A DNA stretch of 64,000 nucleotides from Syntrophales bacterium (GTDB taxonomy: Bacteria > Desulfobacterota > Syntrophia > Syntrophales > UBA2185): positions 9,282 to 73,281 of the forward strand of contig JBEKXK010000003.1 of assembly GCA_049512055.1 (NCBI GenBank). Reading direction: 5' to 3'. Within the stretch, counting starts at the first letter, position 1; each line of letters starts with the position of its first letter. This document shows positions 10,156 to 56,574 of this stretch, piece by piece. The notes below the pieces were generated by a model. That model made no database searches. It saw nothing but the letters and a program-made list of their open reading frames with translations, and was not told the DNA's origin. The translations under genes were made by a program, and so were the position numbers.

Positions 10156-10232
10156 TGGTCGGGATGGCGCGATTTGAACGCGCGACTCCTGCGTCCCGAA
10201 CGCAGTGCCCTACCGGACTGGGCCACATCCCG
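10156..10232 (-). tRNA. tRNA-Pro (anticodon CGG)
   Basis: The minus-strand read CGGGATGTGGCCCAGTCCGGTAGGGCACTGCGTTCGGGACGCAGGAGTCGCGCGTTCAAATCGCGCCATCCCGACCA folds as a cloverleaf. The acceptor is CGGGATG/CATCCCG, the anticodon loop is TTCGGGA, and CCA is encoded. Confidence 0.9.
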
Positions 10233-10324: not shown

Positions 10325-10741
10325 ATGATCATATACGATTTAAGATGTGAAAAGGGTCATAAATTCGAAGGATGGTTCAATGACAGGTGTGCATTTGAAA
10401 CGCAGCAGACACAAAAGCTGATAATTTGTCCTGCTTGTGGAAGTTCCGACGTTGAAATGGTGCCTTCCACAATCTCCATTATGGGAAAGGATATCAAGGA
10501 ATCTAACAGGAGGGATGCTGAAGAATCATCCTTGCCGAAGGCCTTAAAATTGTTTCAAGAATACCTCGACAAGAATTTCGAAGATGTCGGTAAGAAGTTT
10601 GCTGAAGTGGCCTTGAGGATTCATCATGGCGAGGAAGAAGGACGGAATATCAAAGGGATCACTACAGAGAACGAAGAAGAAACCTTAACGGAGGAAGGAG
10701 TTCAATTCCTCAAAATTCCTGTGCCCAAGTTTGACAGTTGA
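10325..10741 (+). CDS. DUF1178 family zinc-ribbon protein
   Basis: 138 aa, MIIYDLRCEKGHKFEGWF...CPACGSSDV, typical of the DUF1178 N-terminus. Confidence 0.6.
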   Translation: MIIYDLRCEKGHKFEGWFNDRCAFETQQTQKLIICPACGSSDVEMVPSTISIMGKDIKESNRRDAEESSLPKALKLFQEYLDKNFEDVGKKFAEVALRIHHGEEEGRNIKGITTENEEETLTEEGVQFLKIPVPKFDS

Positions 10742-10840: not shown

Positions 10841-13150
10841 ATGAAAAGAATGTATAAGAGCATCATAGAAAGTATCGGAAATACGCCGCTGGTGGAAATC
10901 CGTAAGCTTAATCCCAGCAAGAAGGTTAGAATATATGCGAAGCTTGAATATTTTAACCCGGGAGGCTCCGTAAAGGACAGGATAGCCCTTTATATGGTAA
11001 ATGAAGCGGAAAAGAGGGGGGAACTGTCGGGCGATAAGATAATCCTTGAGGCCACGAGCGGCAATACCGGGATCGGTCTTGCACTTGTAGCTGCCGCCAA
11101 GGGATACAGATTATGTCTGGCGATGTCTGAATCTGCCAGTGAGGAAAGAAAGAGAATCCTTAAGGCCATGGGAGCTGAGGTATACTTGACTCCGGCAAGT
11201 CTCGGCACAGACGGCGCCATCGAAGTTGCATATAGCATGATGCTCAAGGACCCAGGAAAATATTTTGGCACCGACCAGTTTAATAATGCCGATAATACGC
11301 TGGCTCATTATCACGGCACTGGGGAAGAAATTTGGCAACAGACGAATGGGGCTGTGACGATGGTGGTGGCAACCTTGGGGACGACGGGCACTGCTATGGG
11401 TATTTCGAGACGACTCAAGGAATATAATCCTGAGATCAAGATAGTAGGCGTTGAACCTTACCTGCAGCATAAAATCCAGGGTCTGAAGAATATGAAGGAA
11501 TCTTACCGACCGGGCATCTATGACAAAAACCAATTGGATGAGAAGATAAATATCCTTGATGAAGATGCATTTGAAACAGCAAGGATGCTGGCCGGAGAGG
11601 AAGGTCTCTTTGTAGGGATGAGTTCAGGGGCTGCCATGTATGTAGCTATGCAGAAGGCAAGAGAAATGGAAGATGGGCTCATCGTTGTGATTTTTCCTGA
11701 CGGGGGAGAGCGATATCTGAGTACGGAACTCTTTGCCGATAAGAAACAATCTACCCTACGTCTCTACAACATATCGACGAGAGAAAAAGAGTTTTTCAAA
11801 CCAATCAATTCTGAAGAAATTCTGATGCATACGTGCGGGCCCACAGTTCATGAAGTTCCCCACGTGGGCAACTATCGGCGTTTTGTCGTTTCCGACCTGA
11901 TCCTGCGCTACCTCGAATTTAAAGGCTTTAAAGTCAGACACGTTATGAACATAATCGATTTGAACGACAGATCCATTAAGGAAGCCGAGCGGGCAAGCAT
12001 AGACTTGGATACGTATACAGAAAGATACACAAGCAAATTCTTCAACGATATAAAAATGTTAAATATCAAACAAGAGGAGGTCTATCCTCGGGCAAGTGAA
12101 AATGTCGAGGCCATGGTGAACCTAGTCGAAAAGCTCGTGGTGAGAGGGCACGCCTACGAAAAATTGAGGTCCGTCTACTTTGACATATCAAAAATAGACG
12201 ATTATGGTCGCCTGTCCAACATTGATCTGAAAAAAGTGAAACGCGGCAGGACTATTGAATCTGATGACTATGAAAAAGACAGTCCCGTGGATTTTACTCT
12301 CCTGAAAAGGTCTTCCCTAAATGAATTGAAGAGGGGGATCTATTTCAAGACCCGTTGGGGCAACGTGAGACCCAGCTGGCACCTTGAGTGTGCGGCAATT
12401 TCCCTTAAATATTTGGCAGACAATTTTGATATTCATGTGAGTGGAACCGACGTCATCTTTCCTCACAGTGAAAACGTCATGGCCATAGGGAGAGCTGCAA
12501 CCGGCAAACGGATGGCCAACTATTGGATCAATACGGAACTGGTCATGGTGGATGGCAAGAAAATGTCCCGTTCTTTAAACAATGTCAAGACAATAGAAGA
12601 TCTGGAGACAGTGGGATATGGCGGCCGACAAATCAGGTTCTTTCTGCTCGGCACTCACTACCGTAAGCCTCTAAATTTTTCCGCCGGTGCCTTAGAGACG
12701 GCGAGAAATACGGTCAAGAAGTTGGATAGATTTATTCAGCGCCTGATTCGTTATACCCCAGGTGAAGGATACCCTGACGCTGATCAACTTGTCTATGACA
12801 TCAAACAGAGATTCTCCAACGCCATGGATGATGATTTCAACATATCCGATACAATGGCCTCTCTTTTTGAATTTATAGGGAAGGTCAGTATTCCACTCTC
12901 TCTCGGGCAGTTGAGTGAAAGGGAAAAGGACAATGTGCTCGATGTCCTAAAGAGGATTGATGCTGTTCTCGGGGTCATGAATTTTGAGGAAGAGACATTG
13001 AACGACGATGCGCTTCGGCTTTTGGAAGAGAGAGCACACGCGAGAAGAATTGGTGATTGGAAGACTTCCGACGATATCAGAAAGAAGCTTCTTGGCATGG
13101 GAATTGAGATATCAGACACCGCCCACGGAGTGACGTGGAGATTAAAATAG
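10841..13150 (+). CDS. Fusion protein: PLP-dependent cysteine synthase (CysK/CysM-like, aa 1-300) joined to a divergent cysteinyl-tRNA synthetase-like module (aa ~306-769)
   Basis: One uninterrupted 769-aa ORF. The N-module has GGSVKDR (PLP Lys), TSGNTGIGLA, GTTGTAMG and SSGAAMY. The C-module is collinear with the canonical CysS at 55093..56574: LYN.T..KE.F.P, CGPTV, HVGN for HIGH, WHLEC, FDIH, FPHSEN, KMSRS, and a conserved C-terminal helix-bundle tail. Confidence 0.85.
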   Translation: MKRMYKSIIESIGNTPLVEIRKLNPSKKVRIYAKLEYFNPGGSVKDRIALYMVNEAEKRGELSGDKIILEATSGNTGIGLALVAAAKGYRLCLAMSESASEERKRILKAMGAEVYLTPASLGTDGAIEVAYSMMLKDPGKYFGTDQFNNADNTLAHYHGTGEEIWQQTNGAVTMVVATLGTTGTAMGISRRLKEYNPEIKIVGVEPYLQHKIQGLKNMKESYRPGIYDKNQLDEKINILDEDAFETARMLAGEEGLFVGMSSGAAMYVAMQKAREMEDGLIVVIFPDGGERYLSTELFADKKQSTLRLYNISTREKEFFKPINSEEILMHTCGPTVHEVPHVGNYRRFVVSDLILRYLEFKGFKVRHVMNIIDLNDRSIKEAERASIDLDTYTERYTSKFFNDIKMLNIKQEEVYPRASENVEAMVNLVEKLVVRGHAYEKLRSVYFDISKIDDYGRLSNIDLKKVKRGRTIESDDYEKDSPVDFTLLKRSSLNELKRGIYFKTRWGNVRPSWHLECAAISLKYLADNFDIHVSGTDVIFPHSENVMAIGRAATGKRMANYWINTELVMVDGKKMSRSLNNVKTIEDLETVGYGGRQIRFFLLGTHYRKPLNFSAGALETARNTVKKLDRFIQRLIRYTPGEGYPDADQLVYDIKQRFSNAMDDDFNISDTMASLFEFIGKVSIPLSLGQLSEREKDNVLDVLKRIDAVLGVMNFEEETLNDDALRLLEERAHARRIGDWKTSDDIRKKLLGMGIEISDTAHGVTWRLK

Positions 13151-13241: not shown

Positions 13242-14081
13242 ATGATGGATAAGGAAATCAGAAAGTCAGTTATTGCAGGTACTTGGTATCCTGGCAGTCC
13301 CAAAGTTTTGCGGGCAGATATAGTAGACTTTTTTCAAAACGCACCTGATGTAATGATTGACGGCATTATCAGAGGCCTGATCGTTCCCCATGCGGGATAT
13401 ATCTATTCAGGCCAGATTGCCGCAATAGCTTATAAAATCATTAAGAAAAAAACCTTTGATGCCGTCTTGGTTTTGGGCCCGAGCCACAGGGCATTTTTCC
13501 AGGGTGTTTCCATATATAATAGAGGCGGATATGAAACCCCCTTAGGCGTGGTACCCGTGGATGTGACCTTGGCAAATGATATAATGGCCCAAAGCGAAAC
13601 GATATCCTACATACCGGCTGCTCATTCTCAGGAGCATTCAGTCGAAATTCAACTCCCTTTTCTTCAAGTCGCACTCGGAGAATTTAGCTTTGTTCCGCTT
13701 GTCATGGGGGAGCAAGACCGCGAGACATGCGAAAAACTCGCTGAGAGTATAGTGAATGCGATAAATGGTAGGAATGTCTTGATCGTGGGAAGTACTGATC
13801 TCTCACATTTCCACTCTTATGAGCAGGCTGTGAAACTTGATTCGGTGGTGATCAAACGTATAGAAGAAATGGACGGCGGGGGCCTCTTGCAAGATTTGGA
13901 AAAAAATCTAGGTGAGGCCTGCGGCGGAGGGCCAGCAGCCGTGACCATGATGGTTTCAAAAAAATTGGGTGCAGATAGGGTGAAGTTGCTGAAATACGCC
14001 AATTCGGGAGATGTGACGGGAGATAAAAGAAGCGTTGTTGGTTATGCTTCCGCTATTTTTTATAAGGGCCGGGATTCTTAG
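13242..14081 (+). CDS. Memo-like protein (AmmeMemoRadiSam system protein B)
   Basis: 279 aa with AGTWYPG, VPHAGYIYSG, GPSH, HSVEIQLPFL and GSTDLSH motifs of the MEMO1 family. Confidence 0.8.
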   Translation: MMDKEIRKSVIAGTWYPGSPKVLRADIVDFFQNAPDVMIDGIIRGLIVPHAGYIYSGQIAAIAYKIIKKKTFDAVLVLGPSHRAFFQGVSIYNRGGYETPLGVVPVDVTLANDIMAQSETISYIPAAHSQEHSVEIQLPFLQVALGEFSFVPLVMGEQDRETCEKLAESIVNAINGRNVLIVGSTDLSHFHSYEQAVKLDSVVIKRIEEMDGGGLLQDLEKNLGEACGGGPAAVTMMVSKKLGADRVKLLKYANSGDVTGDKRSVVGYASAIFYKGRDS

Positions 14082-14287: not shown

Positions 14288-14833
14288 ATGGCGCTGACAG
14301 ACATGGAAAGAAGGGCGCTTCTTGATGTCGTAAGAAAAACGATAGAGGCCAGACTAACAGGTGGGTCTCTCCCGGAGCTTCAACTGCCCTCGAAAGTCCT
14401 TAAAGAAAAAAAGGGAGCATTTGTAACCCTTAAAAAGCACAGTCATCTCAGAGGTTGCATCGGTTATATCGAGGCGAGAAAACCGCTTTACAATACCGTG
14501 GGAGAAATGGCTTTGGCCGCTGCCTTTGATGATCCACGTTTTCCTCCTCTAAAGCCGGACGAGCTGAAGGACATAACTGTCGAGATATCCGTGTTAAGCC
14601 CGCTCAAAGAGGTTAAGAACATAGATGAAATAGAAGTGGGCATCCACGGCCTTTACATTACTAAGGGGTTTCATTCCGGCCTGTTACTGCCGCAAGTGGC
14701 GACGGAATATGATTGGGATAGCTTGACATTTGTTCAGGAAACCTGTTACAAAGCCGGCCTTCAACGCGATGCGTGGAAAGATAAGGATGCCAAAATTTAT
14801 AAATTTTCTGCTGAGATATTTGGCGAGCACTGA
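14288..14833 (+). CDS. AMMECR1 domain protein (AmmeMemoRadiSam system protein A)
   Basis: 181 aa with GAFVTLKK...LRGCIGYIE, DPRFPPL and GLLLPQVA motifs. Confidence 0.82.
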   Translation: MALTDMERRALLDVVRKTIEARLTGGSLPELQLPSKVLKEKKGAFVTLKKHSHLRGCIGYIEARKPLYNTVGEMALAAAFDDPRFPPLKPDELKDITVEISVLSPLKEVKNIDEIEVGIHGLYITKGFHSGLLLPQVATEYDWDSLTFVQETCYKAGLQRDAWKDKDAKIYKFSAEIFGEH

Positions 14834-15349: not shown

Positions 15350-15425
15350 GCTGGCGTAGCTCAACAGGTAGAGCAGCTGATTTGTAATCAGCAGGTTGCG
15401 GGTTCGAGTCCCATCGCCAGCTCCA
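15350..15425 (+). tRNA. tRNA-Thr (anticodon UGU)
   Basis: GCTGGCGTAGCTCAACAGGTAGAGCAGCTGATTTGTAATCAGCAGGTTGCGGGTTCGAGTCCCATCGCCAGCTCCA. The anticodon loop is TTTGTAA and CCA is encoded. Confidence 0.92.
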
Positions 15426-15443
15426 GCTTTTGGTGATATAACT

Positions 15444-15525
<82 letters not shown>

Positions 15526-15592
15526 TCAGAGAAATGAATTGGACAGGAACCTTTGCGGGATGGACTTCAAGGTGCACTTCAATATTTTGAGA

Positions 15593-15668
15593 GCGGGAGT
15601 AGCTCAGGGGCTAGAGCGTCAGCCTTCCAAGCTGAGGGTCGCGGGTTCGAATCCCGTTTCCCGCTCCA
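15593..15668 (+). tRNA. tRNA-Gly (anticodon UCC)
   Basis: GCGGGAGTAGCTCAGGGGCTAGAGCGTCAGCCTTCCAAGCTGAGGGTCGCGGGTTCGAATCCCGTTTCCCGCTCCA. The anticodon loop is CTTCCAA. Confidence 0.92.
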
Positions 15669-15767
15669 TTTTATATTTTTTCTTGGCCAGCTTTTTTTGA
15701 AAATGTGTTTTGATGTGCTGATTATATGGGGTGCATGGAATAAGGAGTCCTCTTGATGAATTCGTTA

Positions 15768-15843
15768 GCCCACGTAGCTCAGTCGGTAGAGCACATCCTT
15801 GGTAAGGATGAGGTCACCAGTTCAATCCTGGTCGTGGGCTCCA
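15768..15843 (+). tRNA. tRNA-Thr (anticodon GGU)
   Basis: GCCCACGTAGCTCAGTCGGTAGAGCACATCCTTGGTAAGGATGAGGTCACCAGTTCAATCCTGGTCGTGGGCTCCA. The anticodon loop is TTGGTAA. Confidence 0.92.
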
Positions 15844-15865
15844 TTACGGTAAAAGTAGGTTAATT

Positions 15866-16015
15866 ATGAGAAATATTATTACCTTGGCCTGTACAGATTG
15901 TAAGCAGAGAAATTATACGACGACGAAAAATAAGCGAACCATGCAGAATCGACTTGAGTTAATGAAGTATTGTAAATTCTGTCGATCTCACAAGCTTCAC
16001 AGGGAAACTAAGTAA
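15866..16015 (+). CDS. rpmG: 50S ribosomal protein L33 (zinc-binding form)
   Basis: Below the ORF-track size cutoff. My translation is [49 protein letters not shown] (49 aa). Confidence 0.92.
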
Positions 16016-16050
16016 ATTTCCTTTATCAGGGAATATGCAGCAGAATGAAC

Positions 16051-16127
16051 AGGCCAGTAGCTCTAATGGATAGAGCGCCGGACTCCAAATCCGGATGCTG
16101 GGGGTTCAAGTCCCTCCTGGCCTGCCA
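16051..16127 (+). tRNA. tRNA-Trp (anticodon CCA)
   Basis: AGGCCAGTAGCTCTAATGGATAGAGCGCCGGACTCCAAATCCGGATGCTGGGGGTTCAAGTCCCTCCTGGCCTGCCA. It sits in the classic position between rpmG and secE. Confidence 0.92.
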
Positions 16128-55092: not shown

Positions 55093-56574
55093 ATGTCTAT
55101 AAAAATATACAACACGCTAACAAAGAAGAAAGAGACATTCGAACCCCTCGTTGAAGGACGGGTGGGTATCTATGCGTGCGGCATCACCGCCTATGATGTC
55201 TGTCATGTGGGCCATGCCCGTTCGGCTGTAGTTTTCGATGTCATCACAAGGTATTTTCAGTATAGAGGATATCATGTCACGTACGTGAAGAACTTTACGG
55301 ACGTGGATGATAAGATTATCATGAAGGCCAATGCGGAAGGGAAAACAATATCTGAAATATCGGAGAGGTATATCAGAGAGCATGACGAAGATATGGATGC
55401 GCTCGGGATAGCCAGGCCTACAATTGCGCCCAGGGCCACAGAGCATATCGCCGGCATGATAAAGCTGATCAATATTCTTCTTGCCAGCGGCCTTGCCTAT
55501 GAGGCCGATGGCGATATCTATTATGCGGTTGAGAAATTTAAAGGATACGGGAAGCTTTCGGGCAGAAATCTGGAAGAAATGATAGCCGGCGCCCGCGTGG
55601 ATGTAAGTGAGAAGAAAAAGTATCCCCTCGACTTCGCCCTCTGGAAAGCCAGCAAGGAAGGGGAGCCATGGTGGGACAGTCCCTGGGGCAGAGGGAGACC
55701 GGGATGGCATATCGAGTGTTCAATTATGAGCCAAAATTTTCTCGGGGATACTTTCGATATCCATGGCGGCGGAGAAGATTTGATATTTCCCCATCATGAG
55801 AATGAGATTGCCCAGTCGGAAGGGGCGACTGGTAAACCGCTTGCCAGATTCTGGATCCACAATGGCTTTGTAAAGGTCAGCAGTGAAAAGATGTCTAAGT
55901 CGCTCGGCAATTTTTTTACCATTAAGGACATATTGAAGAATTACCATCCGGAGGTACTGAGGCTCTTTATGCTTCAGAGCCATTACAAGGGGCCCGTGGA
56001 CTTTTCGGGCGAGTCACTTGCCGAGGCAAGGATGGGCATGGAACGGTTTTATGCCACTCTGAAAGCTGTCAAGGGCACGCTTGCAGCCTGTGGGGATCTT
56101 TCCGCGGTCACCATGGAAAAACTTTCTGGAAAGGATAGAGATATATTCGACAAAATTGCTTCGCTCCCGGATAGATTCAAAGAGGCCATGGATGATGATT
56201 TCAATACACCGAGGGCCATAGGCTACGTCTTCGACACCGTGAGACTTGTAAACGGTTATATGTCAGAGGAAAAATTCTCCGTATCCGCCGAGGCTTGCCT
56301 TATTCTGGATAAGGCGAGAATGGTCATTGCGGAAGTCGGTGGGGTCTTGGGATTATTCCTCGACGACCCTGATGATTATTTTATGCAGGATCGAAACAGG
56401 GAGGCCGGAAAGCGGAGCTTGGACGTGCATGAAATCGACCGTCTGATTGAAGAGAGGCGGGCAGCCCGGCTGGCCAAGGACTGGAAGAGGGCCGATGAAA
56501 TCAGACATCTCCTCGCGGAAAAAAATATCATTCTCAAGGATACCCCTGCCGGTACATCCTGGAAGATAGAATAA
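55093..56574 (+). CDS. cysS: Cysteine--tRNA ligase (canonical)
   Basis: 493 aa with YACGITAYDVCHVGHARS (HIGH), NFTDVDDKI, GWHIECS, FDIHGGGEDLIFPHHENEIAQS and KMSKSLGN. Confidence 0.96.
   Translation: MSIKIYNTLTKKKETFEPLVEGRVGIYACGITAYDVCHVGHARSAVVFDVITRYFQYRGYHVTYVKNFTDVDDKIIMKANAEGKTISEISERYIREHDEDMDALGIARPTIAPRATEHIAGMIKLINILLASGLAYEADGDIYYAVEKFKGYGKLSGRNLEEMIAGARVDVSEKKKYPLDFALWKASKEGEPWWDSPWGRGRPGWHIECSIMSQNFLGDTFDIHGGGEDLIFPHHENEIAQSEGATGKPLARFWIHNGFVKVSSEKMSKSLGNFFTIKDILKNYHPEVLRLFMLQSHYKGPVDFSGESLAEARMGMERFYATLKAVKGTLAACGDLSAVTMEKLSGKDRDIFDKIASLPDRFKEAMDDDFNTPRAIGYVFDTVRLVNGYMSEEKFSVSAEACLILDKARMVIAEVGGVLGLFLDDPDDYFMQDRNREAGKRSLDVHEIDRLIEERRAARLAKDWKRADEIRHLLAEKNIILKDTPAGTSWKIE

Follow-up and report, generated by a model that had tools for sequence, protein, structure and literature searches.

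The subject of this analysis is a gene at positions 10841..13150 of a 64,000-nucleotide stretch (the window) of a Syntrophales bacterium genome (assembly GCA_049512055.1, contig JBEKXK010000003.1), which encodes, in 769 amino acids (aa), a cysteine synthase dependent on pyridoxal phosphate (PLP) followed by a paralogue of cysteinyl-tRNA synthetase (CysRS). The fusion gene is real and consists of a single uninterrupted frame; it joins an aminoacyl-tRNA synthetase (aaRS) paralogue to the enzyme that makes the cognate amino acid, and it is uncharacterised. Many sulfate-reducing and syntrophic bacteria conserve the pairing, some as a fusion and some as neighbouring genes. In the Syntrophales the residues kept by the C-terminal module tentatively suggest tRNA-Cys-coupled cysteine synthesis, probably with direct charging of the tRNA beside the housekeeping CysRS, a reading held here with a little less than even confidence. 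The protein is laid out as follows.

10841..13150, + strand: whole fusion open reading frame (ORF), 769 aa, stop codon included (ORF list, unbroken frame, full-length homologues)
10841..11734, + strand: CysM-type PLP cysteine-synthase module, aa 1-298 (Pfam PALP, TIGR01136, Foldseek)
11735..11755, + strand: linker ADKKQST, aa 299-305, 7 aa (translation, raw DNA; AlphaFold2 predicted local distance difference test score, pLDDT, below 50 at aa 294-302)
11756..13147, + strand: CysRS-paralogue module, aa 306-769 (TIGR00435, BLASTP, Foldseek, separate clade)

The original prediction, made from the letters of the DNA, had described a single 769-aa ORF joining a PLP cysteine synthase to a CysRS-like enzyme through the linker ADKKQST at about nt 11735-11755, and had named a stop or a frameshift at the junction as the mark of two ordinary genes. 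The ORF list and Pfam agree with this architecture, and the junction, read directly in the raw DNA of the window, contains zero stops and zero frame changes. Pfam places PALP at aa 10-287 (E 3.6e-69) and tRNA-synt_1e at aa 319-622 (E 1.5e-85), with DALR_2 at aa 657-713 and CysS_C at aa 720-767 in the C-terminal part. The AlphaFold2 model of the fusion, built on a 49-sequence alignment, has a mean pLDDT of 85.7 and a predicted template modelling score (pTM) of 0.69, and its confidence drops only at the CysM lid loop (aa 217-223), at the linker (aa 294-302) and at a loop of the CP domain (aa 467-481). Measured against the closest relative, the ratio of nonsynonymous to synonymous substitution rates (dN/dS) comes to 0.054 in the N-half and 0.100 in the C-half.

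By its distribution the fusion is an ancestral feature of the Syntrophales. The 120 homologues listed, those of Syntrophus aciditrophicus and S. gentianae among them, are all fused at full length, with 739-803 aa bar one of 660 aa, and are 69-94% identical. One genome per GTDB species was scanned with two peptide patterns specific to the C-half, taken from the CP-domain signature given below, and at least 599 matches were confirmed; the best 80 of these at least 599 are labelled Syntrophales, Syntrophaceae, Smithella or merely Deltaproteobacteria, and the in-frame PALP fusion is present in 75 of the 80 loci, the exceptions being three contig ends and two frame breaks. Since the fusion is in frame at 75 of 80 species loci and full length in the listed homologues, it is due neither to chance nor to an assembly error. 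In the complete genome of S. aciditrophicus (CP000252.1, about 294520-296829) it occupies the same position, in a gene-for-gene match to the window, with the shared order FtsK, acyltransferase, DUF4416, YicC, Gmk, RpoZ, PyrF, SpoU, PilC and DUF1178 upstream, and Memo, AMMECR1, a tRNA cluster and rpmG-secE-nusG-rplKAJL-rpoB downstream.

Two peculiarities were met among these loci. In the two frame breaks (L005 and L072) the N- and C-halves lie in different frames, through a possible assembly frameshift or recent fission; the metagenome-assembled genome (MAG) DASRZZ01 (isolate SMAG_U15336) has two fusion copies, L004 and L009, each on a contig of its own, whose C-halves share 82% and 86% identity with that of the window, and here a duplication or mixed strains in the bin are possible.

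The N-terminal module shows all the residues of a CysM-type active site, which are given below.

10973..10975, + strand: PLP-binding lysine K45 in GGSVKDR, a lysine in 72/72 Syntrophales and 120/120 Desulfovibrionales homologues
11054..11071, + strand: substrate (Asn) loop TSGNTG, aa 72-77 (translation; invariant in the alignment)
11378..11392, + strand: PLP-phosphate loop GTTGT, aa 180-184, with G180, T181, G183 and T184 invariant in the alignment
11474..11518, + strand: active-site lid loop IQGLKNMKESYRPGI, aa 212-226, invariant in Syntrophales and Desulfovibrionales
11621..11635, + strand: SSGAA, aa 261-265, whose Ser faces the PLP pyridine N (translation, alignment, residue counts)

The CysK/CysM hallmarks that had been noticed in aa 1-300, namely GGSVKDR, TSGNTG, GTTGT and SSGAA, were all located where they had been reported, and the CysM catalytic residues K45, S73, N75, Q146, T181, T184 and S261 are kept in 72/72 Syntrophales homologues. 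The N-half passes the cysKM subfamily model TIGR01136 (362.5 bits, cut-off 344.15) and falls slightly below the cut-off of the cysM equivalog model TIGR01138 (375.1 bits against 394.2). Its best sequence match in the Protein Data Bank is CysM of E. coli (2BHS) or Salmonella (2JC3), with E about 4e-79, Foldseek superposes it on the same two structures with a TM score of 0.95, and every PLP and substrate-loop residue of CysM is found in it. The differences from CysM are the covalent link to a CysRS-like module and the lid loop, which corresponds in the alignment to the R210/R211 loop of the E. coli enzyme, has a low pLDDT at aa 217-223 and reads GLKNMKESY in the fusion whereas E. coli has GIRRWPTEY. 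From these residues the N-module would be an active PLP-dependent cysteine synthase that forms L-cysteine from reduced sulfur and an activated serine, either O-acetylserine or O-phosphoserine.

The C-terminal module was numbered as E. coli CysRS through an alignment with 1LI5; its residues were counted in 72 Syntrophales species and its invariant columns were compared with those of 95 canonical CysRS representatives.

11834..11836, + strand: C332, Zn ligand C28 of E. coli CysRS, Cys in 65/72 Syntrophales homologues
11861..11872, + strand: HIGH-type motif HVGN, aa 341-344, with H and G in 72/72 and N, S or T at position 4
11954..11956, + strand: I372 at the T68 position, I/V in 70/72 fusions and T in 100% of the 95 canonical sequences
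12146..12379, + strand: CP-domain region aa 436-513, signature AYEKLRSVYFD ... DFTLLKR ... WGNVRPSW, with most of the clade-wide invariant columns
12377..12391, + strand: WHLEC, aa 513-517, equivalents of Trp205, His206 and Zn ligand C209; W, H and C in 72/72 each
12464..12478, + strand: HSENV, aa 542-546, Zn ligand H234 kept (H in 72/72), H235 replaced by S and E238 by V
12560..12574, + strand: KMSRS loop, aa 574-578; K 72/72, M 71/72, S 72/72, R 71/72, S 72/72
12809..12979, + strand: DALR_2 helical-bundle domain, aa 657-713 (Pfam E 1.1e-06)
12998..13141, + strand: CysS_C anticodon-binding domain, aa 720-767 (Pfam E 2.9e-06)

This module has the Rossmann fold, CP domain, SC-fold, helical bundle and anticodon-binding domain of E. 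coli CysS (1LI5, 1U0B) in the same order; Foldseek gives TM scores of 0.86-0.92 to CysRS structures, including the tRNA complex 1u0b, and the cysS equivalog model TIGR00435 scores 386 bits, above its trusted cut-off of 340. The ATP-site motifs H-x-G and KMSRS are retained together with the Zn/Trp site of thiol recognition, the equivalents of H37, G39, W205, H206, C209, H234 and N237 being present in 72/72 each; the variation N/S/T at the fourth position of the HIGH motif is not alarming, because HIGN is the commonest form among canonical CysRS representatives. Three of the four canonical Zn ligands are present in the window protein (C332, C517 and H542) and the E238 position is not kept. In the anticodon domain all 6 canonical-invariant columns are kept, and the equivalents of R423, D436, R439 and D451 occur in 72/72. 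What distinguishes the module from a canonical CysRS is the replacement of T68, H235, E238, Q241, K269 and W184, in addition to the attached cysteine synthase and the presence of a normal cysS alongside. As a whole it looks like a conserved yet remodelled, more hydrophobic amino-acid pocket joined to an intact tRNA-anticodon domain. At the H235 position the window is an outlier, having S543 (nt 12467-12469) where 64/72 relatives have Cys; this Cys could replace the lost Zn ligand E238 in the relatives and, if so, the window genome is without it.

The normal cysS whose presence 42 kb away had been predicted is indeed found in the window:

55093..56574, + strand: canonical housekeeping cysS, 493 aa (TIGR00435 563.5 bits; all canonical motifs intact)

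BLASTP aligns aa 305-769 of the fusion with residues 2-493 of the resident CysS at 33% identity (E 3e-85), in agreement with the predicted end-to-end collinearity. An exhaustive search of 50%-identity cluster representatives with the C-half retrieved further fusion clusters at 40-56% identity, and other CysRS-like proteins are nearer to the C-half (40-46%) than the resident CysS (33%). In a neighbour-joining tree of 124 CysRS-type sequences with 100 bootstraps, which carries out the phylogeny against canonical CysRS that had been proposed as a check, the fusions and their close CysRS-like relatives form one clade of their own (89/100), within which the Syntrophales are a subclade (100/100). 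A recent duplication of the resident cysS was considered and is ruled out by the 33% identity and the separate clade; on this evidence the CysRS half is a distinct, old paralogue. The full-length CysRS-like module of the original prediction is borne out in its length and its CysRS fold, and it is under purifying selection, but it is not a copy of the normal CysRS.

The two genes also coexist on an independent 150-kb contig, in which the fusion and the canonical cysS are about 42 kb apart as in the window. Comparing the window with the genome of that contig, a single pair, the identity is 78% for the N-half, 68% for the C-half and 69% for the canonical CysS. By this measure the C-module is as constrained as the essential CysS, which argues for a demanding function in the Syntrophales.

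Outside this order the family includes both separate and fused genes. Five members of the clade look as if they stood alone, yet every one of them has a separate PALP gene immediately upstream on its own strand. A genuine stop codon and a spacer of 2 nt separate the pair in L090 (the same in L091, from another source), and a genuine stop codon and 4 nt in L092; the genes of L093 share 20 nt, L094 shows this order at the start of a contig, and in L095 (Desulfamplus) 100 nt lie between the two. Compared with the N-half of the window, the PALP partners of L090 and L092 show 60% identity, and they carry its HKIQGLKN lid loop. A pair that is conserved both as neighbours and as a fusion is classic evidence for functional coupling. 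The architecture arose at least twice, as indicated by P0124, a PALP-CysRS fusion from a Nanoarchaeota MAG that has fully canonical motifs and branches among ordinary CysRS. Another CysRS-like variant, whose form is not recognised, was seen in P0195, P0250 and P0166, with PGWHIEDT and FPHH(D/E)CEI (C209 to D, N237 to C); in P0166 (858 aa) a truncated module of the PGWHIEDT type stands ahead of a complete canonical CysRS.

A further group of fusion clusters, with degenerate motifs, belongs to the Desulfovibrionales (Desulfovibrio ferrophilus, Desulfocurvus, Maridesulfovibrio, Desulfocurvibacter and others) and carries the NCBI annotation 'cysteine synthase'; in Maridesulfovibrio hydrothermalis the fusion lies at 151411-153705 of FO203522.1. 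The CysM catalytic residues are all present in 120/120 of these homologues, and the C-terminal part retains W205, H234, N237, the CP-domain signature and the C-terminal domain. Of the canonical-invariant columns, 33-42% are kept in the catalytic parts and 89% in the anticodon domain, and most of these fusions still give a Pfam CysS_C match. As far as the sequences tell, the constants of the family would be the cysteine synthase and the tRNA-binding part, the catalysis of the C-module having probably been lost in the Desulfovibrionales.

In the Syntrophales, the ATP and thiol-recognition residues are frozen under strong selection, for which reason the C-module probably still adenylates cysteine and charges tRNA-Cys. 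The N-module would make L-cysteine from activated serine and reduced sulfur, and the C-module would dock tRNA-Cys through its intact anticodon domain and spend ATP to load onto it the cysteine made by the N-module itself, in parallel with the housekeeping CysRS; synthesis would be physically coupled to Cys-tRNA formation, avoiding the build-up of a free cysteine pool. We infer in this way both enzymatic activities, the binding of tRNA-Cys and the channelling.

Several observations weigh against direct charging. Since the same genome also has a fully canonical cysS, charging by the fusion is not obviously needed, and ARAGORN found no linked tRNA-Cys gene in the window and 30 related loci. Residues that are 100% conserved in the 95 canonical sequences are replaced: T68, which we take to contact the substrate amino group in the E. 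coli structure, is I or V in 70/72 Syntrophales, the Zn ligand E238 is V, I or L in 72/72, H235 is C in 64/72, and K269, the second lysine of KMSKS, is R in 71/72. Q241 and W184, each conserved in about 98-99% of the canonical enzymes, are replaced by I in 72/72 and by L in 69/72 respectively, and the C28 equivalent is absent in 7/72 species. With T68, E238, Q241 and K269 replaced, ordinary CysRS chemistry is not to be assumed, and the substrate or the chemistry of the C-module may differ from ordinary cysteine activation. Finally, the 120 Desulfovibrionales homologues are without HIGH, C28 and C209 and have the KMSKS loop deleted, from which it follows that aminoacylation is dispensable in at least part of the family. 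The original proposal that the fusion couples cysteine synthesis to cysteine activation is accordingly supported in its first half, the coupling, which the adjacent genes of other lineages support, and not as a family-wide statement on activation, given the motifs lost in the Desulfovibrionales.

The main rival, possible though rather unlikely in our judgement, is that the C-module is a sensor or regulator which does not aminoacylate, even in the Syntrophales, binds tRNA-Cys (perhaps also ATP or cysteine) and reports charging or cysteine demand to the synthase; the fusion would then be a tRNA-gated cysteine synthase. The Desulfovibrionales proteins, with a complete CysM site beside a synthetase site devoid of its motifs and an anticodon domain largely kept, are what such a role would leave, and the columns invariant across the family sit in the CP and C-terminal domains, outside the ATP site; the remodelled pocket of the Syntrophales and the coexistence with a canonical cysS point the same way. 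Mere tRNA binding, however, should let KMSRS, H-x-G and the Zn/Trp site drift, and these are essentially invariant in the 72 Syntrophales, in which the C-half is as slow to change as the essential CysRS; moreover, we know of no tRNA-regulated cysteine synthase. The motif loss together with the retained anticodon domain makes the binding of tRNA-Cys, and not the activation of cysteine, look like the trait conserved family-wide. A doubtful but wider reading of the same facts is that the CysRS-derived module is throughout the family a tRNA-Cys-binding device, by which synthesis would be gated by tRNA-Cys charging or the PLP module would act on a tRNA-bound substrate; the Syntrophales would then be a still-adenylating intermediate and the Desulfovibrionales a pseudo-synthetase end state.

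Direct charging has also to be compared with a role as a ligase with an altered product, in which, much as in MshC, cysteine or a derivative from the N-module is activated and handed to another tRNA or to an acceptor that is not a tRNA, the product being a low-molecular-weight thiol or a cysteinyl conjugate. MshC, the tRNA-independent cysteine ligase of mycothiol synthesis, has no anticodon-binding domain, and its zinc site consists of three protein ligands without a Glu ligand. Like the fusion it is a CysRS paralogue recruited beside a normal CysRS, and the remodelled, more hydrophobic pocket and the loss of the Zn ligand E238 would suit a new product, as would the fact that CysRS paralogues with new functions exist, namely MshC and CysRS*. 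The fusion, in contrast, has no mycothiol gene context and comes from a host outside the actinobacteria; its whole anticodon-binding domain is kept and conserved, and no conserved thiol-biosynthesis or glycosyltransferase neighbour is present in the Syntrophales, Desulfovibrionales or split loci. The MshC model TIGR03447 gives 182.9 bits against a cut-off of 485.1, and this score and the retained DALR_2 and CysS_C rule out identity with MshC. The MshC-like low-molecular-weight thiol that the original prediction had entertained as a product is disfavoured by the same score and by the anticodon domain.

CysRS* of Desulfobacterales is without an anticodon-binding domain and is linked to selC*, a tRNA-Cys(UCA), and to selB* (Mukai et al. 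2017, PMC5389517). It resembles the fusion as a second, divergent CysRS beside the canonical enzyme in Desulfobacterota, and differs in that the fusion has an anticodon domain and CysRS* is not fused to a cysteine synthase. Neither a tRNA-Cys nor a Sec-like tRNA was found in the window and 30 related loci, and the neighbours of the fusion are DUF1178, Memo and AMMECR1, with no selB nearby; the anticodon domain and the absence of selC*/selB* rule out identity with CysRS*. A persulfide had been another product suggested. The persulfide synthase activity of E. coli CysRS (CARS) relies on the PLP-binding lysines K73, K76, K266 and K269 (PMC10655014), in place of which the window protein has R377, K380, K574 and R577; among the 72 species the K269 position has R in 71, the K73 position is split between R (38) and K (32), and the K76 position varies, so that these lysines are not conserved and this suggestion is not upheld. 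Taken together, an altered-product ligase appears improbable.

Still less probable is a chemistry on the tRNA, in which the C-module would hold tRNA-Cys carrying Ser, phosphoserine or O-acetylserine and the PLP module would convert it to Cys-tRNA-Cys, as a fold-type II analogue of SepCysS. Throughout the family, including members with a dead adenylation site, the synthase and the tRNA-binding parts are conserved; without the Zn ligand and T68 the module could be less specific for cysteine, and some PLP enzymes do act on aminoacyl-tRNA, SepCysS among them. The resemblance to SepRS/SepCysS, in which a PLP enzyme ties cysteine synthesis to Cys-tRNA-Cys, is a functional analogy only, since there is no homology (SepRS is a class II synthetase and SepCysS a fold-type I PLP enzyme) and the route passes via Sep-tRNA. 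We know of no fold-type II PLP enzyme that accepts aminoacyl-tRNA; the Desulfovibrionales proteins could not themselves load any precursor, no SepRS-like gene was seen nearby, and the thiol-recognition site C209/H234/W205 retained in the Syntrophales speaks for cysteine rather than serine as the ligand.

That two ordinary adjacent genes were joined by a sequencing or assembly error, or that the gene is a decaying pseudogene, has a negligible probability and is ruled out by conservation and selection: the different frames in 2/80 loci (L005, L072) and the truly split versions of other lineages recall such an origin, whereas the frame of the window is continuous, the in-frame fusion recurs in 75/80 species loci as well as in a finished genome, purifying selection on both halves is strong and the AlphaFold2 mean pLDDT is 85.7.

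Among CysRS paralogues the nearest precedents are MshC and CysRS*. The closest conceptual precedent for direct charging with a self-made amino acid is the MetRS of Mycoplasma penetrans, which is fused to a PLP aminotransferase able to make Met (PMC13215547). In both cases a class I aaRS is joined to a PLP enzyme making its own substrate. The two cases differ in the aaRS, in the fold type of the PLP enzyme and in the lineage of the host; in addition, the M. penetrans fusion is the organism's own MetRS and not a paralogue beside a canonical enzyme, and it is reported from one organism and not from a broad clade.

The surroundings of the fusion in the window comprise the following genes.

10156-10232, - strand: tRNA-Pro(CGG), just upstream of DUF1178
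10325..10741, + strand: DUF1178 zinc-ribbon gene, function unknown (Pfam), directly upstream of the fusion
13242-14081, + strand: Memo-like gene, 3' of the fusion, forming an AmmeMemoRadiSam-type pair with the next
14288-14833, + strand: AMMECR1 gene
15350-16127, + strand: tRNA cluster Thr-Tyr-Gly-Thr, then Trp, ahead of rpmG-secE-nusG

In 58/59 Syntrophales loci the gene immediately 5' of the fusion, in the same orientation, is DUF1178, and no terminator-like site was found between the two; beside the Desulfovibrionales and split versions DUF1178 is absent. DUF1178 may be, on account of this association, a lineage-specific partner of the fusion. The tRNA-Pro(CGG) gene is found in 28/29 of the Syntrophales-type loci scanned, a sign that the order of genes here is very stable. 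Directly 3' of the fusion, 30/63 related loci have the Memo-like gene and other loci the tRNA cluster; the position of this cluster before rpmG-secE-nusG is the usual bacterial order, is kept in relatives and is nothing unusual. No T-box, riboswitch or other Rfam element reached the gathering threshold in the window and related loci, where only ordinary tRNAs were detected, and, apart from the fusion and cysS, no gene of the window has to do with sulfur or cysteine metabolism. Nor were informative operon partners for sulfur or thiol metabolism found beside the fusion in the window, in S. aciditrophicus or in M. hydrothermalis, or in the split loci.

Whether the architecture was already catalogued had been left as a question by the original prediction. 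It is in fact present in databases under the generic names 'cysteine--tRNA ligase' and 'cysteine synthase', and a search of open-licence PMC papers and bioRxiv found no published description that characterises it. Hundreds of genomes carry such labels, and either one skews what is reconstructed of the metabolism of syntrophs and sulfate reducers.

Should the Syntrophales protein load freshly made cysteine onto tRNA-Cys, it would channel the product of amino-acid synthesis straight to translation, in organisms that live close to the thermodynamic limit and in habitats rich in sulfide, conditions that make free cysteine expensive and reactive. A tRNA-binding regulator or an on-tRNA platform, if the module proves to be one of these instead, would represent a new link of tRNA status to amino-acid supply. 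The family offers an evolutionary series of split genes, fusions with a live-looking site and fusions with a dead site and an intact anticodon domain, which makes both questions testable.

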